Virus record (IMG/VR): IMGVR_UViG_3300020048_000003
From: a virus
DNA: 64,000 bases
Reading direction: 5' to 3' (one strand)
A model generated the notes under the pieces. That model ran no database searches. It was not told the DNA's origin and saw nothing but the letters and a program-made list of their open reading frames with translations. Position 1 is the first letter of the stretch. Each line of letters begins with the position of its first letter. This document shows positions 7,701 to 61,694 of the stretch, piece by piece. The position numbers were made by a program, and so were the translations under genes.

Positions 7701-8543
7701 CTAATAATTCATTATAATCATTTCAATACTTTCTTTATCACCTTTGCGACTAACACCATTGTAATTAAAATCTAATTGTTTTGATTTAAATCCATCTTGA
7801 ATTAATTTATTCATTATCCATGATTGTTTTCCATCGTGTTCTAAAAGACCAGATAGCATAAAAGAATGTCCTTTTAAATTTAAATCTAAAATATAGTTAT
7901 AAAGTTTAATATCATCTTCTTTTTTATAAAACACATTATATCCCGCCTCTGAGATTTGTTTATTTCCCATTTGACCATTCTCTATTACATAACCATAGGG
8001 TGGATCAATATAAACCATTGAAGGTTTAGTTATTTTTATATCTGAAAATGATTTTGAAGAGAATAAGATTTTATCCTTAAAAGGTGTAATATATTCAATA
8101 TATTCAATTAATTTCTTCTCTGTTGAAGGATTAAAAGTTCTTTTACCAAAGGTTTGATTGTATTCAAACTTGAGATTGAACCGCATCATATTGTTGGTGG
8201 AACAAAGCATAAGAGCATACAATTTCTCAGGTGTTTTTTCGCTGTTAAATGATGTTCTTAGTTGATTAAAACCACTTTGATCATCTTTTGATACACTTAG
8301 TTCTTTAACTTTTTTGATGAACTCAGAAGAGTTATTTATAATTTCTCTATGTATACCAACTAATTCAGCAATTACATCATTTGCTAATATCTTTTTATAT
8401 TTATCTGTAACGTTTGACCCTACAACAAAACTACCACAAAACAAATCTACAAAGTATGATTTTGTATAATCCATTTCGGGTAGTATTTGTTCAAGTAATT
8501 TGAATTTACTTCCAGTAAAATTAAGTGCTGTATTTATATACAT
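7701..8543 (-). CDS. DNA N6-adenine methyltransferase (Dam-like, D12 class)
   Basis: LNFTGSKFKLL (AdoMet motif) ... YIDPPYGY (DPPY catalytic motif). Confidence 0.8.
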   Translation of the reverse strand: MYINTALNFTGSKFKLLEQILPEMDYTKSYFVDLFCGSFVVGSNVTDKYKKILANDVIAELVGIHREIINNSSEFIKKVKELSVSKDDQSGFNQLRTSFNSEKTPEKLYALMLCSTNNMMRFNLKFEYNQTFGKRTFNPSTEKKLIEYIEYITPFKDKILFSSKSFSDIKITKPSMVYIDPPYGYVIENGQMGNKQISEAGYNVFYKKEDDIKLYNYILDLNLKGHSFMLSGLLEHDGKQSWIMNKLIQDGFKSKQLDFNYNGVSRKGDKESIEMIIMNY

Positions 8544-10667: not shown

Positions 10668-10691
10668 ATTATTTTCCTTTAGAACACAAAT

Positions 10692-10961
10692 TTACGGATT
10701 TTTTTCTTCTAAAAAAATTTTCAACTTCTTTAATTTTTTTTTTCTTACATCTTTGATACAATCAAAATAATCCCATAATAGAGCAACACATTCATCCTCA
10801 TTAAGATATGTGTAAAATGATGATGAAGTTTTAAAATCATTTAATATACTCACAGTTCTTTTACCTGATAAATAGTAGACTTTATAAGGTTTACCTACAG
10901 TAAACCCCAGTCCCACTCCTTTTATACAAATTAATTCATCACCAAGTTTAAGAGTTTTCAC
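10692..10961 (-). CDS. Fam-B small protein (tail RKKKLKKLKIF), LGDELICIKG barrel
   Basis: Conserved tail. Confidence 0.6.
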   Translation of the reverse strand: MKTLKLGDELICIKGVGLGFTVGKPYKVYYLSGKRTVSILNDFKTSSSFYTYLNEDECVALLWDYFDCIKDVRKKKLKKLKIFLEEKNP

Positions 10962-11160
10962 TTATCTCTTTTAGTTTTTTTAATCTTTTATTTCTTATAA
11001 ATGCTTTTATTTTTATTTCAGGAATAAATTTAAGATCTTCTGAAAAGCATATATAACACATATTTACACCATCAAGTTCATAACAATTATTCATGAGTTT
11101 GTTACATTCCTTACAATAGTAAATTCCAGGTGTGTGTTGTTTAAATGTCCATTGAAACAT
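10948..11160 (-). CDS. Fam-B small zinc-ribbon protein (tail KRLKKLKEI)
   Basis: CKECN...CYIC plus the conserved tail. Confidence 0.55.
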   Translation of the reverse strand: MFQWTFKQHTPGIYYCKECNKLMNNCYELDGVNMCYICFSEDLKFIPEIKIKAFIRNKRLKKLKEISENS

Positions 11161-11165
11161 TTGTT

Positions 11166-12020
11166 TTATTTTCTTTTTAATTTAATTTTTGTCATTAAGC
11201 AAGAACTATTATGTTGACAATATCTCTTATCAAATTCATAATCAGATTGAAACTTCTGGTTTACTATATCATAAGGACATTGAATGATTTTTCCTCCTAT
11301 AGAATAGTTCGCAAATTTACATTTGTTGCCATTTAAATTAACTGTGCTTTCAAAGACACCTCTTTTACTTATATGTATTTCCATGTCGCCTTCATATTTT
11401 TCTAAAAAATTGTGAACCAATTCTTTATATTCCATAACAGGCATTGTTAATTCTGTATCATCAAAAAATTCTTGATTTTCATTATCTAATTCTCTTAAAC
11501 TAGATATAAAGAAAACTTTACAACCCATTTTTTCAACATGGTCAGCAGTTTCTATTAATTCATCAACTGTAGTTGTACTTGATACCATAAAACAAATATC
11601 ATAAGGTATGTTTGTATCTGGTAAGTGTTTTAGACTTTTTAATTTACCAGTTTTGCAATATAGAGATATTCTAAGTTTAGCACCTTGAAAGTCTTTTTCG
11701 GTGTATTTATCTAAATAATAACCGTTTGTGTAAATTGTTGTTTTGAGACCTATTAGGTTGTTCTCATAAATCATTTCACGAAGAAAAGGATGCATAAGAG
11801 GTTCGCCACCAATAAGTGTGATTCTTTGACATCCTTTTTCTTTTGCATTTTTGATAACTTCTTTATATTCATCAATTTGCATAAATGCTTTTCTATCACC
11901 CATAATGTTACGGGCGAAGCAACCTGTGCATCTTAGATTGCAATCATTTGTAATAAAAATTTGTAATGTGTTGATTCTATCAACTTTTTGTTCTTCGTAT
12001 TTATACCAGGGGAATTTCAT
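11166..12020 (-). CDS. Radical SAM enzyme with a C-terminal Cys-rich (SPASM/twitch-like) region
   Basis: CNLRCTGC (CxxxCxxC) and GGEPLMHP; C-terminal CKF..C..CQHNSSC. Confidence 0.8.
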   Translation of the reverse strand: MKFPWYKYEEQKVDRINTLQIFITNDCNLRCTGCFARNIMGDRKAFMQIDEYKEVIKNAKEKGCQRITLIGGEPLMHPFLREMIYENNLIGLKTTIYTNGYYLDKYTEKDFQGAKLRISLYCKTGKLKSLKHLPDTNIPYDICFMVSSTTTVDELIETADHVEKMGCKVFFISSLRELDNENQEFFDDTELTMPVMEYKELVHNFLEKYEGDMEIHISKRGVFESTVNLNGNKCKFANYSIGGKIIQCPYDIVNQKFQSDYEFDKRYCQHNSSCLMTKIKLKRK

Positions 12021-14830: not shown

Positions 14831-15562
14831 ATGAAAAAAGTATTTTATTTATTATTTGTATTGTTATTTATATCATGTAGCAACACAGTAAATTACCATC
14901 CATCTATAAATTTTATAGGTGGAAATGGTTTAATATCAGAAGATGTAGTATTAAAACCTAATCAACAATTTAGAGTTGGAATAAATTCATTTTCAAAAGG
15001 AAATTCTAACCTTTATAATTTTAAAGTAACGAGAATATTTAATAATACATCAGAGATTATAGTTGATTCTATTATTGATAATAAAAATTTTAACATGATA
15101 ATGACTTGTCCATCAGCAGTTTCAGAGGGAACTGAACGCTGGACTTTTTCTATAACTTGTAAAGATGGATATAGTAGTGAAGTATCATTTCAAATAAAAA
15201 CCTCTCTAAGTGATACAACACAGATTAACTCAACACAAAGTCTTATAAAAGAATATGTTGTGTTAGATTTACCAAACAAAATTTCGCGTGATGATATTCT
15301 TATATATGTAAGTTTATTTGTACTTCTAGTATTTGGTGCTATTGTTTATTTCATTAGAAAATCTAAATTAACAACAAAAGAGTATGTTTTACTTAAGTCT
15401 AATTATTTAGATGATATGAAAAAAGAATTAATAGATAAAATTGAATCTCAGAAAAGTCCGAGAATAGAAGGAAATAAAGGAAATTTTATTGTTTTTGTTG
15501 CAGTATCTATTGTTATAATAGTATTTTTACTATTTTTATTATTAGGTGAAATTTATTTTTAA
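14831..15562 (+). CDS. Putative lipoprotein with a C-terminal TM anchor
   Basis: Signal peptide with a lipobox-like FISC; C-terminal hydrophobic helices. Confidence 0.55.
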   Translation: MKKVFYLLFVLLFISCSNTVNYHPSINFIGGNGLISEDVVLKPNQQFRVGINSFSKGNSNLYNFKVTRIFNNTSEIIVDSIIDNKNFNMIMTCPSAVSEGTERWTFSITCKDGYSSEVSFQIKTSLSDTTQINSTQSLIKEYVVLDLPNKISRDDILIYVSLFVLLVFGAIVYFIRKSKLTTKEYVLLKSNYLDDMKKELIDKIESQKSPRIEGNKGNFIVFVAVSIVIIVFLLFLLLGEIYF

Positions 15563-15882
15563 CAATCAAATATTTTTCTGATATTTTTAATTTTCTCTTT
15601 TCGTTGTTCACCAATATTCACAAAATAGATATTTACATGACTTTCCACCCAAAGAGTACATTCATTTTTTATTCTCTTATTCCTCTCAATTTCACCTAAT
15701 TGATTAATCTCAGTATAATATCTTCTCTGCTTAGGTGTTTCATCATTTGAAATGTAATAAGCACCTTTTTCATTAATATCAATAATTTGATATCTTAAGC
15801 CTAATGTATATATAGGTGTGCTAACATATTGCCGTGGTGGCATTTCCTTAATTAAGGTCAAAAAATCTCCTACTTTATTCAT
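15559..15882 (-). CDS. Fam-B small protein (tail [10 protein letters not shown]), VGDFLTL barrel
   Basis: Tail. Confidence 0.6.
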
Positions 15883-16868
15883 TTTAAATCGTGTAACATC
15901 ATTATTTTTACTAGTTCTTTAAATTTAACTTTTGCTTCCCAACCTAATATGGCTTTGGCTTTTGTAGGATCACCTAATAATAAATCAACTTCGGTTGGTC
16001 TAAAGTATTTTGGATCACTTTCAACAACAATTTTACCTGTTTTTTTATCTACTCCTATATCATTTGAAAGCCAATTAATTTCAACATCAATATATTTACA
16101 TGCTTCTTCTATAAATTCCCTAACAGAATGACATTCTCCTGTTGCTAAAACAAAATCATCTGGCTCATCTTGCTGAAGCATTAAATACATACCATATACA
16201 TAATCTTTTGCATATCCCCAATCTCTTTTAGCATCTAGATTACCAATCTTTATAGTTTCACCAGTTTTTTTCCAATTTGCCAAACCTCTTGTTATTTTTT
16301 TGGTAACAAAAGTTTCTCCTCTTCTTTCACTTTCATGATTAAATAGTATACCATTAGAAATGAATAAGTTATAGCCTTCACGATAATTTCTAGTCATCCA
16401 AAAAGCATATAATTTTGCTACTCCATAAGGTGATCTAGGATAGAATGTTGTTTTTTCATTTTGAGGTACTTCTTGTGCTTTTCCATAGAGTTCACTTGTT
16501 GATGCTTGATAAATTTTGGTATGTGGAGAGTAGTTTCTAACTGTTTCTATTAATCTTAAAACTCCCATTGCATCAACCTGTCCAGTATATTCTGGTAATT
16601 CAAAACTAACCTGTACATGTGATTGAGCAGCAAGGTTATATATTTCATCAGGTTTTACTTTTTGAATTATGTGTTCTATTGATAATGTATCTGTTACATC
16701 TCCATAATGTAAATGGAGTTTTGGATAAATATGATCAATACGACTAGTATTAAATGAACTTGATCTTCTTATAATGCCATGTACTTCATATCCTTTATCA
16801 AGTAATAATTCAGCAAGGTACGAACCATCTTGTCCCGTAATTCCAGTAATTAGTGCAATTTTTTTCAT
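15879..16868 (-). CDS. gmd: GDP-mannose 4,6-dehydratase
   Basis: [48 protein letters not shown] is near-identical to the bacterial Gmd N-terminus. Confidence 0.9.
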
Positions 16869-17647
16869 TGTATATTTAAATATTTTTTTGAATCTTCATA
16901 AAATTCTTTAACTCTTTCACTACCAATGTATTTACAATTTTTATTCAAACAGCCTCTTGCTGTTGTGCCTATTCCCATAAATGGATCGTATATTATGGAT
17001 CCTTCCGGAAAATATATATGAATAAGTTTTTCAACTAATTCACTTGAATATGTAGCTTTTAGTTTACTTTTGAAACCATCATTATTTTTAGCTTCAATTG
17101 TATTTAGGTAATTCTTATAAAATTTTTGATTTGTTTTTTCATTAATTGTGCTAATTTCTTTATTGGCTTTAAAAGTATTTAGAAATTTTTTATTTACAAT
17201 TATATAGATTAGTTCTGATATTCTTGTTAGTTTATTAGGACTTGTTTGAAAAGGACTTGCTGAATTTTTTCTCCAAATTACAATATCCGTTAATGTTAAA
17301 TCAGTTTCTTGATGAATTTTATTTAATAGAAGAGTTGGTAATATAGGATTATCTCCTGAATAAGACATGTTATAGCAAATAACACCATCTGCTTTTAGAA
17401 TCCTTTGAAACTCTTTGAATTCTTTTAATCTTAATTCTAAATATTCATCTGTTGTAAGATTATCAACATCATTTTCATATAAATGAAAATCATCTTGATC
17501 TTTCCTTCTATGATTAGGATTACGACCCATATTATATGGCGGACTGCATATTACACCATCTATAAAATTATTAGGCATCTTACTCATCGTGAGTAAGTTA
17601 TCTTCATTATAAATTTCGTTTAATTTTCTCATAATTTTATTAACCAA
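16865..17647 (-). CDS. DNA methyltransferase (beta-class N6A/N4C)
   Basis: Motif IV SPPY lies N-terminal to motif [11 protein letters not shown]. Confidence 0.75.
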
Positions 17648-18414
17648 CTTATATTGAATGTTTCCAGTTTGTGATTAGGAAAATTTTCTTCTATGGCTTT
17701 TACAACTGTATCAATTTGAATATCATTATAATCATGACCACAAATAAATCCACCACTTTTTATCTTATTTTTCCAATTTATTATATCTGTACTTACTCCT
17801 TTATAGGAGTGATCTCCATCAATATAAATAAAATCAATGCTATTGTCCATAATTATATTAGCAAATTTATCTGAGAACATTTTTATTTTTATAATATTTG
17901 GATATTTTTTTGTTAGTGTATCAAAATTGTTTTCAATATCCATCATGTTGTAATTATTTATAACATCTTCACGTTCATCATAATTATTTATCCAAGGGTC
18001 TATTGCAAATATTTTTGCATCTGGAAAATTCTTTTGAAAAACTGTTGTAGATTCTCCTTGATAAGAACCTATTTCAACTATATTTTCAATTTTTTTACCA
18101 TCTCTTTTTATGAAATTACATAATTCTTCTAGTTCCTGAACATTTGATCTCATAAAATTAACATATGTTAAAGGTGTTTCAGAACAGTATATTAAATCAT
18201 TTTCATCTTTGAGTGTGACATTTATTTTTGAGATGTCCACCATTTTTAAATAAGGTGAAAACCATACAATAGAATTACTTGGTAATTCAACATCATAAGA
18301 ATATACTTCTGTATCAAAATATTTAATTATTATTCTTCCTTTGAATCTATAATCATAAAGATTATTTAGATATACTCTATTATTTGGTATATCAGCTGAT
18401 ATCAGTACCTTCAT
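17629..18414 (-). CDS. Class I SAM-dependent O-methyltransferase (TylF/CmcI-like)
   Basis: VEIGSYQGEST ... IDPW ... YIDGDHSY ... GHDY. Confidence 0.7.
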   Translation of the reverse strand: MKVLISADIPNNRVYLNNLYDYRFKGRIIIKYFDTEVYSYDVELPSNSIVWFSPYLKMVDISKINVTLKDENDLIYCSETPLTYVNFMRSNVQELEELCNFIKRDGKKIENIVEIGSYQGESTTVFQKNFPDAKIFAIDPWINNYDEREDVINNYNMMDIENNFDTLTKKYPNIIKIKMFSDKFANIIMDNSIDFIYIDGDHSYKGVSTDIINWKNKIKSGGFICGHDYNDIQIDTVVKAIEENFPNHKLETFNISWLIKL

Positions 18415-18553
18415 TTCTTTTATTTATTTTTATTAATTTCTTTTTTCTTTTTAAAGAAATTTTATTGTAAAATTTCTTATTTTCAAATAAGAATACTTTA
18501 CCTTTTGCGGTTGGATCTTCCAATTCTATTGAAATTTTCTTATCTTTAAACAT
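18392..18553 (-). CDS. Fam-B mini-protein (about 53 aa, tail LKRKKKLIKINK), absent from the ORF track
   Basis: Hand-translated; its stop overlaps the downstream start. Confidence 0.4.
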   Translation of the reverse strand: MFKDKKISIELEDPTAKGKVFLFENKKFYNKISLKRKKKLIKINKRNEGTDIS

Positions 18554-18788
18554 TTTCTAATTTCATTATTTTTAATTTTCTAATTTCCTTATTAGTATAA
18601 AAATGCTCATAAAAATTTGGATATCTTTCATATAAAGTTTTTTCAAAACCAAATCTTTGAAATGCTGTATTATTTTGAATCCAATATGAATCTTGATAAC
18701 TATATTCAGATACTACATTATAATACTTACCTTTCTTAAAAGTATGAATTTCTGACGATTTATAATCTTTTTTACACAAAACTTTCAT
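18546..18788 (-). CDS. Fam-B small protein (tail RKLKIMKLENV)
   Basis: Tail. Confidence 0.6.
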   Translation of the reverse strand: MKVLCKKDYKSSEIHTFKKGKYYNVVSEYSYQDSYWIQNNTAFQRFGFEKTLYERYPNFYEHFYTNKEIRKLKIMKLENV

Positions 18789-19222
18789 TAGAAATTTTTA
18801 TCATGTTTTGGTGGTCTCATAGAATTAAAAACCATTTTCATCTGAATATATTTTTCTATATCTATATCCATTTTTTCACAAAGTTCTGCTAATCTAATAA
18901 AAGTGTCAGCGAGTTCATCTTCAAAAGTATCTTTAACATGATGTATAAATCTCATTTGAAATAAATTTGGATTGCTTTCTGATTGTTCAACAAGTTCATC
19001 CAATAGTTCTTTTGTTCCATTGTAAGACCTATCTTTTCTAATTGCTTCCATTGATTCAGTTAATTCAGAGACTGCTAACAATAATTTTTGAGAAATAAAT
19101 AAATCCCTATAAATTTTTTGTTCTCTTTCTGATTCTAAGTTGTTTGCGATATCATAATCTTCCCAAAAACCTTTTTCAACTGCAATTTTGTGTGCGTTCT
19201 TTTTTAAATCTTCTATTTTCAT
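18788..19222 (-). CDS. Hypothetical protein
   Basis: 144-aa ORF. Confidence 0.5.
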   Translation of the reverse strand: MKIEDLKKNAHKIAVEKGFWEDYDIANNLESEREQKIYRDLFISQKLLLAVSELTESMEAIRKDRSYNGTKELLDELVEQSESNPNLFQMRFIHHVKDTFEDELADTFIRLAELCEKMDIDIEKYIQMKMVFNSMRPPKHDKNF

Positions 19223-19226
19223 AATT

Positions 19227-19454
19227 TTAGTTTTTATTTTCTATTTCTTTTAATTTTTCATTTCTTATTTTAGTGAGTAAAAATGGGCACCAAAAAGGAG
19301 TTTTTAGATGTGAATATAATTTATTTCCAAATATTTTAGAGTTATGTAAGCACTTTTTACCTGGAATTATACCATAATCAGCACCTAACCACTTACAACC
19401 CTCACAAGAAAATTCTTTTTTTAATGTTGGTCCATTTTTACCATTGATATTCAA
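19227..19454 (-). CDS. Fam-B small Cys-rich protein (tail RNEKLKEIENKN)
   Basis: CEGCKW...C...WCPF plus the tail. Confidence 0.55.
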   Translation of the reverse strand: MNINGKNGPTLKKEFSCEGCKWLGADYGIIPGKKCLHNSKIFGNKLYSHLKTPFWCPFLLTKIRNEKLKEIENKN

Positions 19455-19463
19455 ATCATTATA

Positions 19464-21347
19464 TTATTTTTTAAATGTACTTATAGTATCAATTACAACT
19501 CCCTTAATTTCTTCTTGTGAAATTAGTTTTAATTTTGATATTTCTAACATTCTATTAAATAGTTCTGGATTCATATTTGACCGACCAGCAACATTCTTTT
19601 TTGATTCTATATTTCCATCAAAAAAGAATGAATGATGTATATAGCCTACTCCATTTGGTTTAAGTACTCTATAAATTTCACTCAAATAATTCTGAATAAC
19701 AAATTTATCCATATGAACAAAAGAATCCCAAGAAAAAACAAAATCCAAAGATTCATCTTTAAAATCGCTAAGACTTTTACCATTATTTATTGAATATTTT
19801 TCAATATAGTTACCAAACCTTTCTCTGCATTTTATAATACAATTCTCATTCAAATCAACAACACTAAGGTTATTTGTATATTTAAGCAAATATGTTGTTA
19901 TTCTACCATGTCCTGGCGCAATCTCTAAAACATTTCCTTTTATATAATCTTTAATTTTTGGATAGATAATTTCATTCCAAACTTTTTCTGTACCACCAAA
20001 AACATCTGACCATTCTTCACCATCTCTTTCCCATTCTGAATCATTATTCCAGAATTTTTGTTCTTTTGTATTATCATATACTTCAGTTTTTTCAATTTTA
20101 ACTTCTTTATTATGAGTTGATTTTAGAATTTCATATGCCTTTTTTGCTGAATTTTCCCAAGAAAATTCTTCTCTTATGAGTTCTGAATCTTTGATTGCTT
20201 TTTCTTTATATTGCCAATAGTTTATATAAACATCTCTCATAACTCTTGATAAGTCATGAAAATCTGGTTCTATATAATTACCAACTGAATTTGGAATTGG
20301 TTTTTCATCTAACACATTGACTGGATGACCTTTACCACTTGCAAATTCTAATTGACCACTCCAATTTGAATATATTGATGGTGTACCACAAGCCATAGCC
20401 TCTATAAGAGGTAAATTCCAACCTTCTGATCTTGCACAAGATAGAAATACATGACCATTTCTTAAATAGTTTATATAATCTTCTCTTTCAAGAAAATGAA
20501 GAACTTTTAATCTATCATCTTTAAAGTTGAATTTTTCTAATCTCTCTTCGGTAGTTTTCATTCCATCTACGGCATAATCAGCATTATCCACAGCTAAAAT
20601 TAAGTCAACTGGCTCGTTATTTTGAAATGTTTTAAGAAAGGTCTCAATGATTTCTTTGGTCGCTTTACGATACTCCCAACGACCTATAAGTATAAATTTA
20701 AATCTATTATCTTTATACAAATCTAAATTTTGATTAAAATAATCTGGTGAGAATATTTTACCGTCAACTGCTTCAGGTACTACATAAATTTTATCAGATG
20801 GATATCCTTGTTTTATAGCACATTCTTTCTGCCATTTAGAAGGAACCCATAGTTGATCAAATTTTTTAAGTTTTTCAAAAAAATTATCTTCGTATCTTGT
20901 TGATTCCCAGACATTATATGCTATTTTAGTTCCTTTATATTTTTCAATAGAATTAAAATAGTGATGATTTGTTTCACTTAGAACTATATCTATTATATCT
21001 TCTTGTTTGTATTCATTAAGATAAGTAAGTCCATCATTAACAGGATAATCACATATTCCAGAATCATATCTATTTTTTTCACTTTTACCACAGTAAAGTG
21101 TTTGCTCACATATTAGATTTCTTTGATAATCAGTAAGGTATGTTTCATTTTTATGTGGATCTCCATAAACACCTTTAGAATCAATTGTACCTAAACCATT
21201 CCAAGTTTTTCCAACTGTAAAATTTTTAACTTTTACTGGTGTTAGATGGCTTAGAGCAGTAAAAAAATCTCTTGCATGTGCATTATATCCTGTGTGTCCA
21301 ACGAAACTTGTATTACCTTTTACAAAAAAATTATTATTGATTTCCAT
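19464..21347 (-). CDS. Bifunctional glycosyltransferase (GT4-like) with a C-terminal class I SAM methyltransferase
   Basis: EGWNLPLIEAMACGTP (EX7E) in the N-terminal half; VLEIAPGHGRIT...LKPNGVGYIHHS in the C-terminal half. Confidence 0.7.
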   Translation of the reverse strand: MEINNNFFVKGNTSFVGHTGYNAHARDFFTALSHLTPVKVKNFTVGKTWNGLGTIDSKGVYGDPHKNETYLTDYQRNLICEQTLYCGKSEKNRYDSGICDYPVNDGLTYLNEYKQEDIIDIVLSETNHHYFNSIEKYKGTKIAYNVWESTRYEDNFFEKLKKFDQLWVPSKWQKECAIKQGYPSDKIYVVPEAVDGKIFSPDYFNQNLDLYKDNRFKFILIGRWEYRKATKEIIETFLKTFQNNEPVDLILAVDNADYAVDGMKTTEERLEKFNFKDDRLKVLHFLEREDYINYLRNGHVFLSCARSEGWNLPLIEAMACGTPSIYSNWSGQLEFASGKGHPVNVLDEKPIPNSVGNYIEPDFHDLSRVMRDVYINYWQYKEKAIKDSELIREEFSWENSAKKAYEILKSTHNKEVKIEKTEVYDNTKEQKFWNNDSEWERDGEEWSDVFGGTEKVWNEIIYPKIKDYIKGNVLEIAPGHGRITTYLLKYTNNLSVVDLNENCIIKCRERFGNYIEKYSINNGKSLSDFKDESLDFVFSWDSFVHMDKFVIQNYLSEIYRVLKPNGVGYIHHSFFFDGNIESKKNVAGRSNMNPELFNRMLEISKLKLISQEEIKGVVIDTISTFKK

Positions 21348-22200
21348 AAAGTTCTTTTATTCTTTGTAGTTTTAGATTTCTGTAATATGAGATATCTCTT
21401 GTATTCATAGCATAATATTGATAGTATGGATGTAATCCACAATCTACTATACTATAGTGCATCATAAGATTTTTGTTTTTATTATAATTTCCAACTTCAA
21501 AAAATTCAAATTCATCAAATTTTATAAATCCTTGATTATCAACTTCAATTATACAATGAACACCAGGTTGATCTATAGAATTTTTACGACCAACAAAAAT
21601 ATAATCATCTTCAAGTGAGTTATCAATATGGTATACTATATTACCAATTGTTAATTCGTTTTTATCATTAAATAAGAATGAAATATCATCTAAATATTGA
21701 AGAATATATTGATATGTTTTATTATTTGATATTAAAAATTGTGCTGGACCAATTCTACCTTCAATTGCAATATAATTACTCACATGATTAATTTTTGCGA
21801 TAATTTTTCTTGCTATGATTGAATTATTACGTTCAGTATCAGTATCTAATGCTTTTTTCATTTCTCTGATATTTATATCAAAGTTTTTTATTGCTGTATA
21901 TTCTCTATGATGTTTACCTAATTCTGCAATTTTTTCAAAAATATCTTTTTGTATCTGGTTCATTATATCTTTAACTGTTAGATTTTGAAAGTCTTCAAAA
22001 ACTAATGGCTTTAAGTTAGCGGTTTTTTGATAAATACTTGGACCTATAACAGTTGGATATGTTGTGTTAGAAGATGTTGCCGGTTGAATATTGTTTGAGT
22101 ACTGAAAATCAACAAACATTATATTAACTGTTTGTGATGTTGCTCCTTTTAGTTGGAAAAAATTGTTTTCAAGTTCATCTAATTTAATTTTTGGAATCAT
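21334..22200 (-). CDS. Hypothetical protein
   Basis: 288-aa ORF. Confidence 0.55.
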   Translation of the reverse strand: MIPKIKLDELENNFFQLKGATSQTVNIMFVDFQYSNNIQPATSSNTTYPTVIGPSIYQKTANLKPLVFEDFQNLTVKDIMNQIQKDIFEKIAELGKHHREYTAIKNFDINIREMKKALDTDTERNNSIIARKIIAKINHVSNYIAIEGRIGPAQFLISNNKTYQYILQYLDDISFLFNDKNELTIGNIVYHIDNSLEDDYIFVGRKNSIDQPGVHCIIEVDNQGFIKFDEFEFFEVGNYNKNKNLMMHYSIVDCGLHPYYQYYAMNTRDISYYRNLKLQRIKELYGNQ

Positions 22201-22276: not shown

Positions 22277-22864
22277 ATGGAAAAATTTACAAAAATGAAA
22301 GATAATCCAGTCATACCAGAAGAACAAGTTTTATATAATGGAAAATTCCTTGATGTGATTTCTTATAAAGATACAGAATTATTAAAAATTAGAGATAAAG
22401 TTGCTATTTTACCTTATTTTAGAGATGAAGCAACATTTTTAATGAGATTAGAATATACTCCTGCGTATCAATATAAAAATCGTGATAAATCAAATCTTAA
22501 AAGAATTACAAATTATTTAACAATTATGACAGAGGGAATGGAAGAAGGTGAAACTCCTGAAAAAACAATTAGAAGAGGCTTATACGAAGAAGGTGGACTT
22601 GTTTTGAATAATTTATATCCATTTGAGGTTGAAGGTCCTTTTTTTGTTGATAAATATACTACTGGACAAGTATGGGTTTGTTTTTTGGAACTTCCAGTTA
22701 ATTCATATCGTCAAATTAAACCACCAACAGATGGTTCAACAGCAGAAAAATTATCAAAATGTATAAGAGTTTCAGTTGGTGATATAGACCAGATTGTTAA
22801 TAATGATTTGATTTCTAAGTATATGATTACCAAATTAAAAACTAGGATTGAAAATGGTATATGA
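22277..22864 (+). CDS. Hypothetical protein (weak, degenerate Nudix-box-like ExxxxxxxRGLYEEGGL)
   Basis: 195-aa ORF; an upstream TAAATTTG promoter-like element is present. Confidence 0.5.
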   Translation: MEKFTKMKDNPVIPEEQVLYNGKFLDVISYKDTELLKIRDKVAILPYFRDEATFLMRLEYTPAYQYKNRDKSNLKRITNYLTIMTEGMEEGETPEKTIRRGLYEEGGLVLNNLYPFEVEGPFFVDKYTTGQVWVCFLELPVNSYRQIKPPTDGSTAEKLSKCIRVSVGDIDQIVNNDLISKYMITKLKTRIENGI

Positions 22865-23773: not shown

Positions 23774-23958
23774 AATATTTACAAAAATTTGAAGAATATA
23801 CTCCAGTTGAATTTGTTGCACCTTTTCGTGAGCATCCATCATATAAAAATGAAGAAAAAAAGAAGAAGCGAAAAAGAAAAGGTCAATCTGCTGAAGCACC
23901 TGTAATGGTTCCACCAAATCACACAAAAGATGCGATTTCTTTTAAAGGTAGCTCTTAA
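23770..23958 (+). CDS. Fam-A N-terminus (MKYLQKFEEY) with a Lys-rich C-terminus; no KYNL
   Basis: N-terminal motif only. Confidence 0.45.
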   Translation: MKYLQKFEEYTPVEFVAPFREHPSYKNEEKKKKRKRKGQSAEAPVMVPPNHTKDAISFKGSS

Positions 23959-25358
23959 AATCTCTTGAACCTAGTAATAAGTTTTTCTGTTGTTGATATT
24001 TGTTTAAATTTATCCTTAGTTCTATAAGAAGATTTCATTTCACCTCCTAAATCATAAAGTATTAAATTTTCGTGATTTTCATCCCAACCTAAATTACCCT
24101 GGTGAAAATCTGTATCATGTACACCTTTTAATTTAAGTTCTTTAACTATATTTAAGATTTTTGGATAAATATCAATTGCGATTTTCTCTACATCTTTAGG
24201 GTCTCTCTCATTTGCTAATATCCTTTTATTTTCTACTGAATTTGGTCTAAATAACACAAATTGAATATGATCTATCATATTTTTTTTGTCTTTAACGTTT
24301 TCATAATATTCAGGATTATTCTGAATCATACCTTTATAACAATGAATTGCATCTTTCTCATTTTCAGTTAATTCTCCTACATAATCCATTAATATATACC
24401 ATTTATAAACATTAGTATCTAATCCAATATTTTTGTTCAAAATATTGATTTCTCCCACGTTATAATAGTTGACTATATATTTAGACCATTTCTTATTTTT
24501 AGATAATTTATATGCAATATGTACTTCATTTTCATCCGAAGTTATTTTTAAAACTTTACCAGATTTTGTTTTATATGCAAATCCATATCCACCACCACCA
24601 AGATAACTATCAATTTCTTCACCTAAATCATCAGCGATTTCTAGTATTCTCTTTTTTATTGTAGGTGTTGGATAATTATATTCTTCTAATACGGAATATT
24701 TTTTCAATTTAACTTTTGGTTGTTTACCATATGGATCATATCTTTTTGTTATATCAAATAAGATTAACCTTGTATGATCATGATTCCAACCTAAATTACC
24801 ACCATGAAAATCACATTGTTCTATGTTATGTTTTTTTAATTCTTTTGCAATATTTTTAATATGAGGAATAAAACTTATAGCATTTTTTTTCATTTCATAA
24901 ATATCATACATACTTGAAAGTAGTGGTCGGTTTTGTTTAAGTTTAATAGTAGTAAAACTGTGATTGATATTATCTATTAATTCATCATCAAATGCACTTT
25001 TATAAAAAGATTTTGAAAATTGAAAAATAGGTTTAAAGACATAATCAATCATTACTTTTTCTTCTTTTGGTAATGGTTCAACGTAATCCATTAATATAAA
25101 ATACTTAAAGTCATTTGTTGTATTCTCTATTTCACCTACATTGTAATAATTTAGAATATATTTAAATAAATTTTTGTGTCTTGCCAACTTCTTTGCTATA
25201 ATGATTTCATTTGTATCATAAGTAAGTTTCAATACTCTTCCTGACTCAAGTGAAAAAACAACACCAAAATCACCTGAACCTATTTCTTCAATAAGTTTTT
25301 CTCCTAATTCATCGGCAATTTTAATTGCTAATTTTTCTGTTGCACTAAGAAATTTCAT
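23955..25358 (-). CDS. Tandem protein-kinase-like (PKL/APH-like) domain protein
   Basis: Two copies of a Gly loop plus VLK (IGSGDFGVVF...VLKL; LGGGGYGFAY..VLKI) and of DFH(G/Q)GNLGW, which resembles the HGDLHPGN catalytic loop. Confidence 0.5.
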   Translation of the reverse strand: MKFLSATEKLAIKIADELGEKLIEEIGSGDFGVVFSLESGRVLKLTYDTNEIIIAKKLARHKNLFKYILNYYNVGEIENTTNDFKYFILMDYVEPLPKEEKVMIDYVFKPIFQFSKSFYKSAFDDELIDNINHSFTTIKLKQNRPLLSSMYDIYEMKKNAISFIPHIKNIAKELKKHNIEQCDFHGGNLGWNHDHTRLILFDITKRYDPYGKQPKVKLKKYSVLEEYNYPTPTIKKRILEIADDLGEEIDSYLGGGGYGFAYKTKSGKVLKITSDENEVHIAYKLSKNKKWSKYIVNYYNVGEINILNKNIGLDTNVYKWYILMDYVGELTENEKDAIHCYKGMIQNNPEYYENVKDKKNMIDHIQFVLFRPNSVENKRILANERDPKDVEKIAIDIYPKILNIVKELKLKGVHDTDFHQGNLGWDENHENLILYDLGGEMKSSYRTKDKFKQISTTEKLITRFKRF

Positions 25359-42845: not shown

Positions 42846-43955
42846 TTATTGTCCTCTACCATATAATACTGTAAAGAAAGTCTTAAAGAATATTTTTATA
42901 TCTTGAGTAATAGACCAATTATTAATGTAATCCATATCTAACTGCATCCAATCATCAAACTTTATATCATTTCTATTTTTTTGAATTTGCCATAAACAAG
43001 TTATACCAGGTTTTGTTAACAATCTTAAAAAATATTTCTTTTTATACTTTTTAATTTCTTCTTCTAACGAAGGTCTTGGACCAATTATGGACATATCACC
43101 TTTTAAAACATTAAGAAATTGTGGAAATTCATCAATGCCAGTTTTTCTTAAAAAAGATCCAATATTTGTTATTCTTGGGTCTTTTTTTATTTTAAAAACC
43201 GGACCATCTGCCTCATTTAATTTCATTAAGTCCTTTTTAATATCCTCGGCATCAGAAACCATAGTTCTAAATTTATATAAAGTAAATTCTTTACCATGTA
43301 GACCTATTCTTTTTTGCTTGAATATAATAGGACCTTTTGATGTTAGTTTTATTAATAATGCAATAACAAAAAGAAAAGGTGCTGACAATAAGAGAATAGA
43401 AAAAGATAAAATCATATCGGTTATTTTCTTTTTTCTCAAATCACACATAGGTAACAATTCAATATCTTTGTGATAATTTATTCTTGATATTAATTTTTTA
43501 GCAGTTCCTTCCCTACCACTAATTAGAAAATTTTCAGTCATTGTACTATTTTCAATGATTTCAGGATTTTTAATTTTTTCTTTTGCACAACTACCATCAC
43601 TTAATACATTTTTTACACTTTCTAGTAATTGTTCTGAATGAACAGGTTTTTCTATATAATCACACGCACCTAATTGCATTGACTTGATTATCAATGGTAC
43701 TTCATCATAACCAGTAAACATAATTACTGGTATAACATAATTGCTTTTAATATATTTTAGAATTTCAATTCCTGACATACCACCTGGTATATCATAATCA
43801 GTTATAATTAAATCTATATTAGAATTTTTTAGTCTTTCAATTCCTATTTCACCGGAAATTGCGGTATATACTTTGTACCCGTTATCTTTTAATGTTTTTT
43901 TCACTAACATTAAAATTATTTCATCATCATCTATAAGTAAAATTGATTTTTTCAT
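42846..43955 (-). CDS. Response-regulator receiver (REC) domain fused to a bacterial sugar transferase (WbaP/WcaJ/PglC-type polyprenyl-phosphate hexose-1-phosphate transferase)
   Basis: ILLIDDDE...DLIITDYDIPGGMSG...MFTGY is a REC domain. C-terminal TM plus RIGLHGKEFTLYKFRTM...GPRP is the sugar-transferase signature. Start set at MKKSILL (43955); the longer ORF-track N-terminus is translated terminator hairpin. Confidence 0.8.
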   Translation of the reverse strand: MKKSILLIDDDEIILMLVKKTLKDNGYKVYTAISGEIGIERLKNSNIDLIITDYDIPGGMSGIEILKYIKSNYVIPVIMFTGYDEVPLIIKSMQLGACDYIEKPVHSEQLLESVKNVLSDGSCAKEKIKNPEIIENSTMTENFLISGREGTAKKLISRINYHKDIELLPMCDLRKKKITDMILSFSILLLSAPFLFVIALLIKLTSKGPIIFKQKRIGLHGKEFTLYKFRTMVSDAEDIKKDLMKLNEADGPVFKIKKDPRITNIGSFLRKTGIDEFPQFLNVLKGDMSIIGPRPSLEEEIKKYKKKYFLRLLTKPGITCLWQIQKNRNDIKFDDWMQLDMDYINNWSITQDIKIFFKTFFTVLYGRGQ

Positions 43956-44020
43956 ACTAGCTATATTAGAATTTGTATTGTTGCAATGATAAGGAATAAT
44001 TTTTAAAATAAAAAATAAAA

Positions 44021-44046
44021 AGAGCCAATTTGGCTCTTTTTTTGCT
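44021..44046. terminator. Bidirectional intrinsic terminator
   Basis: aaaaagagccaatttggctctttttttg. Confidence 0.7.
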
Positions 44047-44072
44047 ATCAGGTTCATTTGAATATCGCATTT

Positions 44073-44681
44073 TTATTTTTGAAATAAATTCTCTTTTACA
44101 TCAGTTGAAGCGTAATATGCTGTTGCTTTTGAAATATTTGCATAAGCAACGGTTATACCTTCATTTGTGGCTGCGTAATCAAACGCATTACTCCTGTCCA
44201 TACCCATCATTTCTGCTTCAAAAGCAGAATCTTGATTTGCACCTAAATAAATAAATTCAGAATTAAATTCTTCTCTCATGTGAGTTACTAATAATTTAAT
44301 TGATTGTTTATGATAAACTGTAGAAGCATTTTCACCACCATCTGTTATAATAACAAATAATGATTTATCACTTCTATCTTCTTTTTTTATTGATGCTAAA
44401 TTATCTAAATAATCATCAATCATTTTTCCTATAGCATCATACAAAGCGGTCATACCACAATGGTAATAAGTTTTTTCATTAACTTTTTTTACTTTTTGTA
44501 TATTCACTTGATTATATGGCATATAAAAATTATCATCAAAAAATAACAATGAGAAATTTATTTTATTATCACTATTTTTCTGGTCTTTCAAAAACTGATT
44601 GAAACCTTCTCTTGCCTTTTCTATAATAGAACCCATAGAACCGGACATATCTAATATACAAATTATATCTATCTTTTTCAT
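44073..44681 (-). CDS. von Willebrand factor A (vWA) domain protein
   Basis: ILDMSGSMGS is a MIDAS DxSxS motif; the later ITDGGEN also fits. Confidence 0.75.
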   Translation of the reverse strand: MKKIDIICILDMSGSMGSIIEKAREGFNQFLKDQKNSDNKINFSLLFFDDNFYMPYNQVNIQKVKKVNEKTYYHCGMTALYDAIGKMIDDYLDNLASIKKEDRSDKSLFVIITDGGENASTVYHKQSIKLLVTHMREEFNSEFIYLGANQDSAFEAEMMGMDRSNAFDYAATNEGITVAYANISKATAYYASTDVKENLFQK

Positions 44682-44695
44682 ATTTTTCTATTATT

Positions 44696-45754
44696 TTAGA
44701 TTAAATGACTTCCACATTTTGGACAAAATTCCCAAGTATTCTTTCTGATTCTATAACCACAATGAGTACAATATTCTCTTACTTCTTTTATTGTACGATT
44801 CATTGTTGAGATTGGCATAATCTTATATGTCATTGAATGAAAAGGTAAATCAGCAAATTGTAAATTTACTCCTTTTAATGTTTGTCTTGAAGTGTCGCCT
44901 TTTTCTATTCTACCAGTTTCTAAAGGATCATAAGTTCTGCTATTTTTATTTATAACATCAAATTCAGAAAATGAAGAATTGATATAATCATTATAATCAA
45001 TAGATTTATCTGTATTTTCACAAAGATATTCAGACCAAGCAATACTTGATTCTAAGTTTGAATTTAGATAATTTGAATATGTATTTGTTGTATTTGTTGT
45101 ATAAGTTGATGATGTTGTTGTACCACCACCTGTTGTATTAATAGTTGTATTAATGTTTGTGAAATGTGGTAAACCAGCACCTCCACCTGAACCAGAGAAT
45201 CCTGCAGGTCCAGCACAACCTTGTATACCTGATACTCCTGAACTACCTGATGTTCCTGATGTTCCAGAGGTACCTGAAGATCCAGAATAACCAGAAGTAC
45301 CTGATCCCCAAGCCATACCTTTATTTTTATAAGGTTTAGGAGGTTTAGGTGGAAAACTATACTTAATGTTTACTTCTTCATTATAAGTACGGTATGAGTG
45401 TCTTTCTTTAAAAAAGTTGAAAGAAATTACTCCGTTTTCTTCTATTGCTTTAACAGCCGCTTCATTATTACCATTAACAACATAAGTTTCAAATAACATT
45501 TTACGTTGTTCATCTAAGAAGCGATCTAATATTATATCTTGCCCTGGATTTAGGACTAGATAACCATCTCCTTTATTTATACCATTGAAATTAATTTGTA
45601 CTCCAATTTTTTCAGGTAAAGGATTAAAAAACCTTAGTTCAAAGTTATCACCATCGTTTAGAAAAACGGTGTTGTCTTGATATAACTTTAACTCATTGCG
45701 ATTGCTTGTAATCACGACCGATGGAGCACGGTCTAGCATTTTGTAGTGTGTCAT
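44696..45754 (-). CDS. Protein with a Gly/Ser/Thr-rich collagen-like low-complexity core and a C-terminal zinc ribbon
   Basis: WGSGTSGYSGSSGTSGTSGTSGSSGVSG...; C-terminal CTHCGYRIRKNTWEFCPKCG. Confidence 0.55.
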   Translation of the reverse strand: MTHYKMLDRAPSVVITSNRNELKLYQDNTVFLNDGDNFELRFFNPLPEKIGVQINFNGINKGDGYLVLNPGQDIILDRFLDEQRKMLFETYVVNGNNEAAVKAIEENGVISFNFFKERHSYRTYNEEVNIKYSFPPKPPKPYKNKGMAWGSGTSGYSGSSGTSGTSGTSGSSGVSGIQGCAGPAGFSGSGGGAGLPHFTNINTTINTTGGGTTTSSTYTTNTTNTYSNYLNSNLESSIAWSEYLCENTDKSIDYNDYINSSFSEFDVINKNSRTYDPLETGRIEKGDTSRQTLKGVNLQFADLPFHSMTYKIMPISTMNRTIKEVREYCTHCGYRIRKNTWEFCPKCGSHLI

Positions 45755-58115: not shown

Positions 58116-58790
58116 CTATTCCCATATTACATCATTATTTTCTTTATTCCATTCAATTGTTAATGGTTGATTAGCATAATTATATTGCTCATTCAACACA
58201 GAAGCATTAAAGAAATGTGTGTTACCATTTGTGGTATATCCATAACCACTATGAACATGACCACAAACATGTATTTTTGGCTTAATTAAATCAATTCTTT
58301 CTCTCAATATCTCACAACCTTTATGAGAATTATCACCAATCATTGTGTCAAGATATCCAAATACAGGTCCATGAGTTATAAGTATGTCGGTATCAGCAGG
58401 AATTTGATTCCATTTATCAACCATTTCTTGGCTATTTCTTTCAATATTGAAAGCCCAATTTAAAAATTTTGGTTGATATGGTGAACCATATATTTTGACA
58501 AGATTAGGATGTTCACCAATATAAACAAAATCATCTTCAAGATAGATAACATCATATTCTTTTAGAAGTTCTTGAATTTTTGAAGGATTATCTTGAAAGA
58601 AAAAATCGTGATTACCAGCAACCAATATCTTATAAGTATATGGTAATTTATTATACCACTTTAAGAAGTTTTTTATCTCATGTTCATATCCCATGCTTGA
58701 TATATCACCAGCACATATAACTACATCACCACCAGGTAAATGTAGTTGTTTTTGTTTGTTGTGTGTGTCAGAGATAAAAGTTATTTTCAT
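58116..58790 (-). CDS. Calcineurin-like metallophosphoesterase
   Basis: MKITFISDTH...GDIS...GNHD...GHVH. Start set at the Met adjacent to the promoter motif. Confidence 0.8.
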   Translation of the reverse strand: MKITFISDTHNKQKQLHLPGGDVVICAGDISSMGYEHEIKNFLKWYNKLPYTYKILVAGNHDFFFQDNPSKIQELLKEYDVIYLEDDFVYIGEHPNLVKIYGSPYQPKFLNWAFNIERNSQEMVDKWNQIPADTDILITHGPVFGYLDTMIGDNSHKGCEILRERIDLIKPKIHVCGHVHSGYGYTTNGNTHFFNASVLNEQYNYANQPLTIEWNKENNDVIWE

Positions 58791-58805
58791 AAGGCAAAGA
58801 TAGGG
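58791..58805 (-). promoter_or_regulatory. Conserved promoter element (CCCTATCTTTGCCTT) abutting the ATG (leaderless)
   Basis: aaggcaaagataggg lies immediately 5' of the 58790 start. Confidence 0.5.
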
Positions 58806-58824
58806 AATTAATTTAAAAGAAAAA

Positions 58825-58851
58825 AGCCGCAATTTTACTTGCGGCTTTTTT
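58825..58851. terminator. Bidirectional intrinsic terminator
   Basis: aaaaaagccgcaattttacttgcggctttttt. Confidence 0.7.
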
Positions 58852-61097: not shown

Positions 61098-61694
61098 TTA
61101 AAATTTTACTTCTGGTGCTTTTTGTGCAGATTCATCAGCTTCAAAGTATGGAAGTTTGTCAAAACCTAACATACTTGCAAATAATACAACAGGGAACTTT
61201 CGCCTTGCATTATTATATTGATTTGCGGCTTCATTAAAATTCCTTCGTTCCACATTAATTCGGTTTTCTGTTCCTTCTAACTGTGCTTGTAATTGTAAGA
61301 AATTTTCATTTGCTTTTAAATTTGGATATTGTTCTACCGAAACTAACAATCTACTAAGAGTTGAACTCATTTCACTCTGAGCCTTTTGAAATTTAGCCAT
61401 TGCGTTAGCATCTAATTTTGAAGGATCTACATTAAGGGTTGTTTTTGTTGCGTTTGCCCTCTGTTCAATAACTCCAATAAGTGTTTTCTGTTCGTGGTCA
61501 GCATATCCCTTTACCACATTCACAAGGTTTGGAATAAGGTCCGCCCTTCGTTGATATGCTCCCTGAACATCTGCCCATTTGTTGTTTGCATTTTCTTGGA
61601 ATTTAACTAGTCCATTATATGAACCAATCACCCCCATAATTGCTAATCCAATTGCTCCTAATACTACAATTAATACAATCCATCCTGTTTTCAT
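61098..61694 (-). CDS. lemA: LemA family protein
   Basis: N-terminal TM then YNGLVKFQENANNKWADVQGAYQRRADLIPNLVNVVKGYADHE is the LemA signature. Confidence 0.8.
   Translation of the reverse strand: MKTGWIVLIVVLGAIGLAIMGVIGSYNGLVKFQENANNKWADVQGAYQRRADLIPNLVNVVKGYADHEQKTLIGVIEQRANATKTTLNVDPSKLDANAMAKFQKAQSEMSSTLSRLLVSVEQYPNLKANENFLQLQAQLEGTENRINVERRNFNEAANQYNNARRKFPVVLFASMLGFDKLPYFEADESAQKAPEVKF

Follow-up and report, generated by a model that had tools for sequence, protein, structure and literature searches.

The 64,000-nucleotide stretch analysed here (the window; IMG/VR virus record IMGVR_UViG_3300020048_000003) corresponds to positions 102,676–166,675 of the ENA contig k141_278361. On its minus strand, ten co-directional genes extend from 22200 to 15559 with intergenic gaps of –23 to +9 nucleotides and are probably packed as one operon, the start/stop overlaps implying co-translation. 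The block opens with a gene for a short protein with a predicted HK97-type capsid fold, which is coupled to a gene for a GT4-type glycosyltransferase (GT) carrying a fused methyltransferase (MT) domain, and it continues into genes for two further methyltransferases and a guanosine diphosphate (GDP)-mannose 4,6-dehydratase (Gmd). We propose that, in this marine-type huge phage, the region is a module that glycosylates virion proteins and is equipped with a variable sugar-tailoring island, and we give this reading a probability of roughly 0.45. It is favoured because genes of this GT family have conserved structural neighbours in two groups of phages, the GT lineage looks phage-specific, the capsid-fold protein has a Ser/Thr-rich loop, and chloroviruses and mycobacteriophages offer precedents.

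The original prediction for this DNA had described a sugar-modification cluster between 15879 and 21347. The open reading frames (ORFs) confirm its four named genes on the minus strand at the positions it gave, and Pfam and NCBIfam profiles agree with its assignments of Gmd, a DNA amino-methyltransferase, an O-methyltransferase-like protein and a GT4–MT fusion. Both ATGA couplings that it reported, of gmd to the DNA methyltransferase gene and of the latter to the gene for the O-methyltransferase-like (Methyltransf_24) protein, can be read directly from the sequence. Its limits were too narrow, as the block runs on to 22200 and 15559 and begins with the capsid-like gene, which had gone unnoticed. 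Likewise, what separates the Methyltransf_24 gene from the fusion gene is not two 'Fam-B' genes but four ORFs, encoding 53, 80, 144 (MazG-like) and 75 residues.

The window has a guanine–cytosine content of ~25%, no tRNA genes, and numerous short, tightly packed ORFs. Metagenomic contigs of 209 kb and 287 kb encode exactly the same proteins, and a search of cultured and deposited phages returned no near-identical DNA; gmd gives the sole DNA-level match of the window to deposited phages (65–75% identity). Because of these identical proteins on long contigs and the lack of a deposited DNA-level relative, the source genome is, on this evidence, a huge phage. An origin from a giant eukaryotic virus, as the GC content of 25%, the inteins and the genes for vault-like and collagen-like proteins might suggest, was considered and rejected: the capsid-fold protein is HK97/T4-like with relatives in Lak, Mahaphage and PTm1 phages, and tail sheath and tube genes are present on related contigs.

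The fusion gene (19464–21347, minus strand) encodes 627 residues, comprising a GT4-type retaining GT-B glycosyltransferase (residues 1–414), a linker predicted to be disordered (residues 415–452) and a class I S-adenosylmethionine (SAM)-dependent MT domain (residues 453–627). Glycos_transf_1 (PF00534) matches residues 213–335 with 48.0 bits against a gathering score of 26.4, and Methyltransf_25 matches residues 473–566 with 50 bits. In an alignment of 19 sequences, R223 and K228 of the motif GRWEYRK, which begins at residue 222, are invariant, as are E308 and E316 of the EX7E pair; the fused MT domain keeps its SAM motifs, with motif I (LEIAPGHG) at residue 474. Loss of catalytic residues from the GT or MT domain had been named as grounds for abandoning the pathway idea; the motifs of both domains are intact, and this objection therefore falls away. 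The AlphaFold2 model of the fusion has a predicted local distance difference test (pLDDT) value of 77. Foldseek aligns its GT part with GlgM, M. hassiacum ManT, MshA, BA1558 and PglA, all GT4 structures matched with a probability of 1.0, and with chlorovirus NY-2A B736L. By this model, the enzyme is a GT4-type retaining GT-B glycosyltransferase with a predicted two-Rossmann fold. The MT domain is matched by NTMT1 and generic class I methyltransferases, its likeness to protein N-terminal methyltransferases being about equal to its likeness to the generic enzymes.

About 2,300 homologues of the GT domain are detectable. The closest ~70 are 65–76% identical and are mostly stand-alone proteins of ~410 residues; other relatives bear inteins or are fused to GT9, PIG-L, GT2 or FkbM domains. 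The same C-terminal MT domain is found in only 3 of the 120 best matches. A scan for the GT signature motifs over 185,579 prokaryotic species, with one genome per species, returned only 3 contigs, all from metagenome-assembled genomes, and this near absence from cellular genomes makes the GT lineage look virus-specific. Among deposited phages, tblastn gave a single good GT match, in Microcystis phage Mel-JY01 (47.7%), and distant matches to Streptomyces phage glycosyltransferases (22–24% identity). Inteins, some with LAGLIDADG or Hom_end domains, split the conserved GT in several of the related lineages (loci are numbered with L below) and also a DegT aminotransferase in L017; intein sites are L021 7998–10328, L175 1615–3978, L017 11515–14109 and L180 6001–8328.

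The first gene of the block (21334–22200, minus strand) overlaps the GT start by 14 nucleotides and encodes a 288-residue protein that resembles T4 gp24/gp23 in a short form. Sequence searches of this protein against the PDB and PHROGs returned nothing, and it was identified by fold comparison alone, its predicted model having the HK97 fold. The Gp23 profile PF07068 scores 17.5 bits, under its gathering score of 24.4, and a precomputed PF07068 match exists for one homologue (P0140). By tblastn, the protein is linked to ~608-residue ORFs of 630–735-kb uncultured huge phages (E 1e-21 to that of LR756501), to Lak phages, and to the 616-residue annotated major capsid protein of Tenacibaculum phage PTm1 (E 4e-2). 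An exhaustive profile search collected 405 relatives in two size classes, 230–310 and 560–675 residues, the long ones matching the 288-residue protein over their C-terminal halves. Given these two classes, the protein appears to be a short HK97-fold paralogue within a capsid protein family of huge Bacteroidota-type phages, and it may serve as a vertex or auxiliary shell protein, or as the shell protein itself. Short and long forms co-occur in the same samples; none of the best 80 loci from a scan for long (~600-residue) forms lies on a GT-bearing contig.

In the predicted model, two long strands (residues 24–34 and 52–62) precede a long spine helix, and this order of secondary-structure elements suggests that they occupy the position of the HK97 E-loop hairpin. 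The tip of the hairpin (residues 35–51) has pLDDT values below 50 and is predicted to be disordered. Across homologues, the tip varies from 12 to 36 residues in length, and its Ser/Thr content is 17–45% in 19 of 20 sequences, as compared with 8–15% in the whole proteins. A disordered, variable and Ser/Thr-rich tip is what an O-glycosylation site would look like, which is suggestive, not proof, and makes it a candidate acceptor.

The neighbourhood of these two genes is conserved. Read in the direction of the GT, the order NUDIX (–), HK97-like (+), GT (+) recurs in all 11 distinct related lineages with a readable neighbourhood (the window/L001, L003, L004/5, L014, L015, L016, L017/18, L019/20, L021, L175–177 and L178). 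The NUDIX hydrolase gene, which in the window encodes 195 residues on the plus strand (22277–22864; PF00293, 25.5 bits), is the divergent left-hand neighbour of the capsid-like/GT pair and is constant in position and orientation in all related loci. The GT domain is more conserved across the lineages (65–76% identity) than the capsid-like protein (36–54%). Downstream of the GT, by comparison, gene content differs in nearly every lineage. Two other lineages, L004 and L017, have a gmd gene at less than 10 kb downstream of the GT, in both together with a DegT aminotransferase gene (intein-bearing in L017). A Methyltransf_24 gene directly follows the GT in L175–177, and the domain is fused within an 895-residue protein in L021; on another huge-phage contig (L006), a Methyltransf_24 homologue lies between DUF6625 and genes for an FkbM methyltransferase, GT_PLOD and GT2. 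The island of L015 contains a cytidylyltransferase-like gene, and in L019 the genes for the DNA methyltransferase and a 107-residue protein are adjacent while gmd is absent. The locus thus presents itself as a conserved capsid-paralogue/GT pair with a lineage-variable glycan-tailoring island. In this picture, gmd and the methyltransferase genes are accessory, and the DNA methyltransferase gene is often present but serves a function of its own.

This arrangement does not bear out the earlier picture of a self-contained pathway, since the set of genes is not fixed: the GT gene is the core, with a capsid-fold gene as its conserved neighbour, and the accessories that vary around it are gmd, the methyltransferase genes and the fused MT domain. 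That the pathway genes belong together is supported in part. The adjacency of GT and Methyltransf_24 recurs (L175–L177, L006) and gmd lies near the GT in L004 and L017. The window encodes neither enzymes to supply GDP-mannose nor a 4-reductase.

Two further features of the islands were noted. SAM synthetase (MetK) genes lie in those of L004 (20053–21236) and L008 (5430–6701), which would fit a high methyl demand; none was seen in the window, and L016 has a 423-residue ORF (10674–11945) of a size like SAM synthetase. In five relatives, a gene for a protein of ~1,090 residues stands just 3' of the GT (L004 11905–15165; L014 9887–13162; L015 9594–12869; L016 6386–9652; L021 10770–14036), a position at which the window has no such gene. 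The L004 protein combines CarboxypepD_reg and outer-membrane beta-barrel domains and resembles a TonB-dependent receptor.

A GT of the same family, 50–55% identical and fused to GT9, is found inside a virion module in a second phage group, represented by 72 IMG/VR loci (L022–L093, not dereplicated; representative L057 69–12979). The genes upstream of this GT encode a collagen-like fibre protein that bears an S74 chaperone domain, a protein of the GT4+GT25 type and a 2-oxoglutarate (2OG)-Fe(II) oxygenase, and tail sheath and tail tube genes follow ~300 nucleotides downstream. A tail sheath homologue is present in 43 of the 62 loci with at least 3 kb of downstream sequence, and the collagen-like fibre gene in 25 of the 30 with at least 5 kb upstream. 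In L057, the order is collagen-like tail fibre with S74 chaperone, GT4+GT25, 2OG-Fe(II) oxygenase, two unknown genes, GT4+GT9, tail sheath and tail tube; this looks like a collagen hydroxylation and glycosylation set within a myophage structural module.

Toward the other end of the block, gmd (15879–16868, minus strand) encodes 329 residues that score 527.7 bits with TIGR01472 against an equivalog cutoff of 415, and 471.7 bits with PF16363 (GDP_Man_Dehyd). The match to human GMD (6gpj) reaches 434 bits. The cofactor motif (GxxGxxG) and the catalytic Thr/Glu and YxxxK residues are intact, and the motifs GITGQDG (residue 9), STSE (residue 123), YGVAK (residue 148) and NHESERRG (residue 177) align with those of the human enzyme.

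The Methyltransf_24 protein (17629–18414, minus strand; 261 residues; PF13578, 59.4 bits) has a catalytic domain at residues ~110–230, preceded by an uncharacterised N-terminal domain of ~100 residues. A profile of its homologues finds 6g7d as the best PDB match (E 3.6e-9), followed by SAM-dependent O-methyltransferases, CCoAOMT and YrrM; 6g7d, whose record is named only 'Methyltransferase domain protein', is presumably MeT1. In the alignment, G116, G120, D199, H202 and D228 are invariant and D139 is kept in at least 90% of the sequences. These residues and the profile match place the protein in the cation-dependent class I O-methyltransferase superfamily, with SAM- and metal-binding positions retained; it is a candidate sugar O-methyltransferase. 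Its relatives include GT8 fusions and proteins with TylF or Methyltransf_3 Pfam matches, and PF05711 stands beside PF13578 in two distant ones (P0188 and P0201). The window protein itself matched only PF13578 in the Pfam scan, and neither TylF (PF05711) nor CmcI (PF04989), so that the earlier label 'TylF/CmcI-like' holds at the superfamily level only and fails at the level of these families. PHROG names this protein 'DNA methyltransferase', which we set aside as a loose name: its profiles lead to O-methyltransferases, and the gene neighbours of its relatives are glycosyltransferases.

The DNA methyltransferase (16865–17632, minus strand) has 255 residues, or 260 with a start at TTG 17647. It matches PF01555 with 107.5 bits, and SPPY at residue 30 precedes FMGIGT at residue 218, the arrangement of motifs typical of the beta class. 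DpnA (N6-adenine), the DNA cytosine-N4 methyltransferase 8s9m and CcrM are PDB matches of similar strength; the SPPY motif is commoner in N4-cytosine enzymes. Orthologues (450–507 bits) reside in the same island in L014, L015, L019 and L021. Since the gene is present at the locus in L019 without gmd, its embedding reflects the history of the locus and is not evidence of a shared function, contrary to its earlier portrayal as a member embedded in the pathway; an independent role against restriction is more probable. Several genes for DNA modification are present in this phage: the window also encodes a D12/Dam-class methyltransferase (94 bits; 7701–8543, minus strand) and a radical SAM protein (11166–12020, minus strand), and an Eco57I-like methyltransferase or restriction-type protein lies just outside it (L011 18920–20395).

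The remaining genes of the block are small. A 144-residue protein (18788–19222, minus strand) is a MazG-like all-alpha nucleoside triphosphate (NTP) pyrophosphatase by its matches to PHROG pyrophosphatase families (E 3e-21 and 1.5e-19), its Pfam MazG-like signal being weak; L178 has a 144-residue ORF at the matching position. This protein probably acts in nucleotide metabolism, outside the sugar chemistry. Between it and the fusion gene lies a gene for a 75-residue protein (19227–19454, minus strand) with cysteines at residues 17, 20, 35 and 56, which recurs in five lineages, its homologues lying directly downstream of the GT in L004/5, L015, L017/18 and L021. An 80-residue ORF (18546–18788, minus strand) has weak paralogue matches inside the window, and a 53-residue ORF (18392–18553, minus strand), which overlaps both of its neighbours and has no homologue in the related loci, is a doubtful gene. 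The last gene of the block (15559–15882, minus strand) encodes 107 residues, is ATGA-coupled to gmd and has a homologue 3' of the DNA methyltransferase gene in L019/L020.

Taken as a glycosylation module, the block would work as follows. Its core would be the small HK97-fold capsid paralogue and the phage-specific GT4 glycosyltransferase whose gene is coupled to it. Gmd would convert host GDP-mannose to GDP-4-keto-6-deoxymannose, and reduction to a GDP-6-deoxyhexose could be carried out by Gmd itself, as in PBCV-1, or by a reductase of the host or encoded elsewhere in the phage genome. The Methyltransf_24 O-methyltransferase and the MT domain fused to the GT would be further contributions of the island. 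The product would be an O-linked glycan with a methylated 6-deoxyhexose on exposed Ser/Thr-rich loops of capsid or fibre proteins, for which the disordered E-loop-like tip of the neighbouring capsid-fold protein is the best candidate acceptor site. The MazG-like pyrophosphatase and the beta-class DNA methyltransferase are probable bystanders with roles of their own. Of this scheme, the gene identities, intact motifs, predicted capsid fold, conserved synteny and changing island content are observed, and the acceptor, donor sugar, methylation target and co-expression are inferred from them. Virion proteins, DNA and the host surface had previously been offered as targets without ranking; the genomic context now favours virion proteins.

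A more specific form of this proposal takes the short capsid paralogue of this lineage as a dedicated glycan carrier, whose hypervariable tip would be O-glycosylated by the co-translated GT4 while exchange of the island would diversify the glycan, and the related GT of the second group would act on collagen-like fibres. We regard it as possible, if rather doubtful.

Several observations weigh against the virion-glycosylation proposal. The acceptor is predicted from gene context, synteny with a capsid-fold gene being guilt by association, and the acceptors used by GT4 enzymes range over lipids, polysaccharides, small molecules and proteins. The presence of the 288-residue protein in particles is putative, and one to three small ORFs separate the capsid-like gene from the GT in L015, L017 and L019. 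The donor is also in question: as the GT is conserved even at loci that lack gmd, it may use a sugar donor other than a Gmd product. As the original prediction had observed next to gmd, no 4-reductase or epimerase accompanies it; Pfam calls identified none of these, nor ManB, ManC or other sugar-nucleotide enzymes, in the window and its 3–7 kb flanks, a range that lies within a genome of at least 287 kb, and phmmer found no second short-chain dehydrogenase/reductase in the window. The PBCV-1 GMD also reduces its own product to GDP-D-rhamnose, which the ATCV-1 enzyme does not (PMC5408694), so that a Gmd without a partner reductase may still lead to a finished sugar; alternatively, the host could supply the enzyme. 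As the fused MT domain resembles protein N-terminal methyltransferases about as well as it does generic class I enzymes, a sugar may not be its substrate. Promoter and terminator scans gave counts indistinguishable from those of shuffled sequence; the sole minus-strand terminator-like hairpin, ~100 nucleotides beyond the last gene of the block, is weak and was not relied on. Finally, a phosphoglycosyl transferase encoded in the window (42846–44057) points to lipid-linked cell-envelope glycan chemistry.

That last gene leads to a different view, in which the GT, Gmd and methyltransferases alter the lipopolysaccharide, capsule or S-layer glycan of the host during infection, for superinfection exclusion, to keep progeny from re-adsorbing to lysed cells, or to redirect GDP-mannose flux, as with cyanophage gmd and seroconverting phages. 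The phosphoglycosyl transferase family catalyses the first membrane-committed step of envelope glycan assembly, and the window protein (Bac_transf, 226 bits) carries an N-terminal response-regulator receiver domain. In addition, gmd is a known accessory gene, read as host-directed, of the marine cyanomyophages P-SSM2, S-SRM01 and S-CAM7, which are blastn matches of the window gmd, and GlgM, ManT, MshA and PglA, the structural neighbours of the GT, serve polysaccharide, glycolipid and small-molecule glycan pathways. Yet the phosphoglycosyl transferase gene lies 21 kb away in a different gene block, flippase, polymerase, ligase and transporter genes were not found in the window, and the GT lineage is almost absent from cellular genomes and is linked to genes for virion structure in two phage groups independent of each other; on balance we consider a host-surface target plausible but less likely than virion proteins. 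The phosphoglycosyl transferase gene belongs to three adjacent genes (42846–45754, minus strand), the others encoding a VWA protein (44073–44681) and a 352-residue collagen-repeat protein with a terminal zinc ribbon (44696–45754); the trio may be a second glycan-related module and as such bears on this view.

The variability of the island invites a reading without any joint pathway, as a mosaic of independently acting accessory genes at an insertion hotspot, among which the DNA methyltransferase would counter restriction and gmd would be a metabolic gene. Gene content 3' of the GT changes between almost all lineages, active gene flux is indicated by homing endonucleases and inteins that lie in the islands of relatives, the DNA methyltransferase and 107-residue genes are adjacent in L019 in the absence of gmd, and a contribution to glycan synthesis is not obvious for either the MazG-like or the DNA methyltransferase gene. 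Glycan-related genes (gmd, DegT, Methyltransf_24, cytidylyltransferase-like and SAM synthetase genes) nevertheless recur in this island across several lineages; Methyltransf_24 stands directly beside the GT in L175–177, the window GT and those of three relatives carry a fused MT domain, and the start/stop overlaps imply co-translation. A mere mosaic therefore seems to us somewhat less probable again than a host-surface role. The same DNA methyltransferase and MazG-like genes, with the NUDIX hydrolase beside the block, could alternatively belong to a sugar hypermodification of phage DNA in which the GT would transfer sugar to a modified base, in the manner of T4 glucosyltransferases and of phage DNA glycosyltransferases described recently. 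DNA can be a substrate of glycosyltransferases with the GT-B fold (bioRxiv 10.1101/2023.12.21.572611), and ManT (7qsg), one of the structural neighbours of the GT, is also the match by structure for a putative glucosyltransferase of a phage that is listed with putative cytosine-arabinosylation clusters (PMC13326640). The DNA glycosylation known so far depends on a hydroxylated acceptor base, which is produced either by a thymidylate-synthase-like hydroxymethylase or by the joint action of a C5-methyltransferase and a 5mYOX/TET dioxygenase. Neither of these hydroxylation routes appears in the available Pfam calls, which cover the window, its flanks and loci of relatives, and the methyltransferase encoded here modifies exocyclic amino groups (N6/N4), not C5. 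With no enzyme to hydroxylate an acceptor base nearby, the wrong class of methyltransferase, and a GT partnered by a capsid-fold protein here and by tail and fibre genes in the second group, DNA glycosylation is very improbable.

Virus-encoded glycosylation of particles is established in chloroviruses, mimiviruses and, more recently, mycobacteriophages; we know of no description of it for huge phages of aquatic bacteria. In the comparisons that follow, the present system is known from its genes alone. PBCV-1 (GMD A118R, GMER A295L, GT–MT A064R, GT4 A546L/B736L) likewise encodes soluble glycosyltransferases and a Gmd. A064R, like the window fusion, is a GT with a C-terminal MT domain, which in A064R is predicted to methylate a terminal rhamnose of the PBCV-1 capsid glycan (PMC5408694), and chlorovirus GT4 B736L (3oy2) is among the best structural matches of the window GT (template modelling score 0.71, target-normalised). 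By comparison, PBCV-1, as a eukaryotic virus, has a capsid of the double-jelly-roll type and its glycans are N-linked, the GT domain of A064R is GT-A and not GT4, and PBCV-1 encodes the epimerase/reductase GMER, of which no counterpart was found in the window or its flanks. Chlorovirus glycosylation genes are also dispersed and uncoupled from the capsid gene, whereas here the GT gene is coupled to a capsid-fold gene.

Mycobacteriophage virions are glycosylated by phage glycosyltransferases according to Freeman 2023, as cited in PMC12582341 and PMC11256854. As far as these accounts go, the O-glycosylation of capsid and tail tube in actinobacteriophages resembles our proposal in joining an HK97-fold tailed phage to phage GTs inferred or shown to act on virion proteins. 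The GT lineage and the hosts differ, the present phage being probably of the Bacteroidota-type huge phages; to the extent that those sources describe the actinobacteriophage system, it also differs in that the GT here is paired with a short capsid paralogue and not with the major capsid gene, and is accompanied by sugar-nucleotide and methylation genes. The mycobacterial methylmannose polysaccharide cluster (ManT, MeT1/pMeT3) is another small cluster that combines a GT4 using a GDP-sugar with sugar O-methyltransferases (PMC9883506), and GDP-mannose-dependent ManT (7qsg) is the third-best structural match of the window GT. It serves a cellular, cytoplasmic polysaccharide pathway without a dehydratase or a virion link, and the similarity is remote (15–16% identity for the GT; E 3.6e-9 for the Methyltransf_24 profile to 6g7d). 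The gmd gene has orthologues of 65–75% DNA identity in P-SSM2, S-SRM01, S-CAM7 and the 735-kb uncultured phage LR756501, records that lack this GT beside a capsid paralogue.

All components are of known families, and virion glycosylation, phage gmd genes and GT–MT fusions each have precedents. What appears to be undescribed, as judged from a limited literature search, is a short HK97-fold paralogue beside a conserved, intein-prone, phage-specific GT4 at the head of a variable sugar island in huge phages, together with a GT of the same family in a fibre/tail module elsewhere. If the capsid-paralogue/GT pair glycosylates the particle, a function would be gained for a phage-specific GT lineage of about 2,300 metagenomic protein clusters, the occurrence in these genomes of gmd and similar sugar-nucleotide genes, usually filed as 'auxiliary' to host metabolism, would be explained, and a compact substrate-plus-enzyme pair would be available for engineering glycosylated capsids. 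Were the paralogue in addition a dedicated glycan carrier, Gmd with two methyltransferases here and Gmd with an aminotransferase in relatives would mean different glycans, and the capsid would wear a programmable coat of glycans, useful for adhesion or for evading recognition by hosts or grazers. If glycosylation of the particle proves wrong, the locus still illustrates clearly how a variable island of glycan genes can be anchored at a conserved phage position.

Several other genes of the window deserve mention. An 809-residue vault-protein-like product (30777–33206, minus strand) contains a Major Vault Protein shoulder (PF11978, 96.6 bits), Vault_3 repeats and an SPFH/Band 7 signal, and its gene is adjoined by a glucosaminidase gene (30121–30726, plus strand). 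A 467-residue protein (23955–25358, minus strand) shows an apparent internal tandem duplication of an ABC1/atypical-kinase-like domain, its two halves having the similar motifs 'GGNLGW...LILFD' and 'QGNLGW...LILYD'. Eukaryote-like or membrane-associated domains are scattered among runs of small paralogous ORFs: TPM_phosphatase (58116–58832), a cadherin repeat (60220–61095) and LemA (61098–61694) on the minus strand, and ankyrin-repeat ORFs on the plus strand at ~2.4–2.7 kb and ~50.8–51.2 kb.

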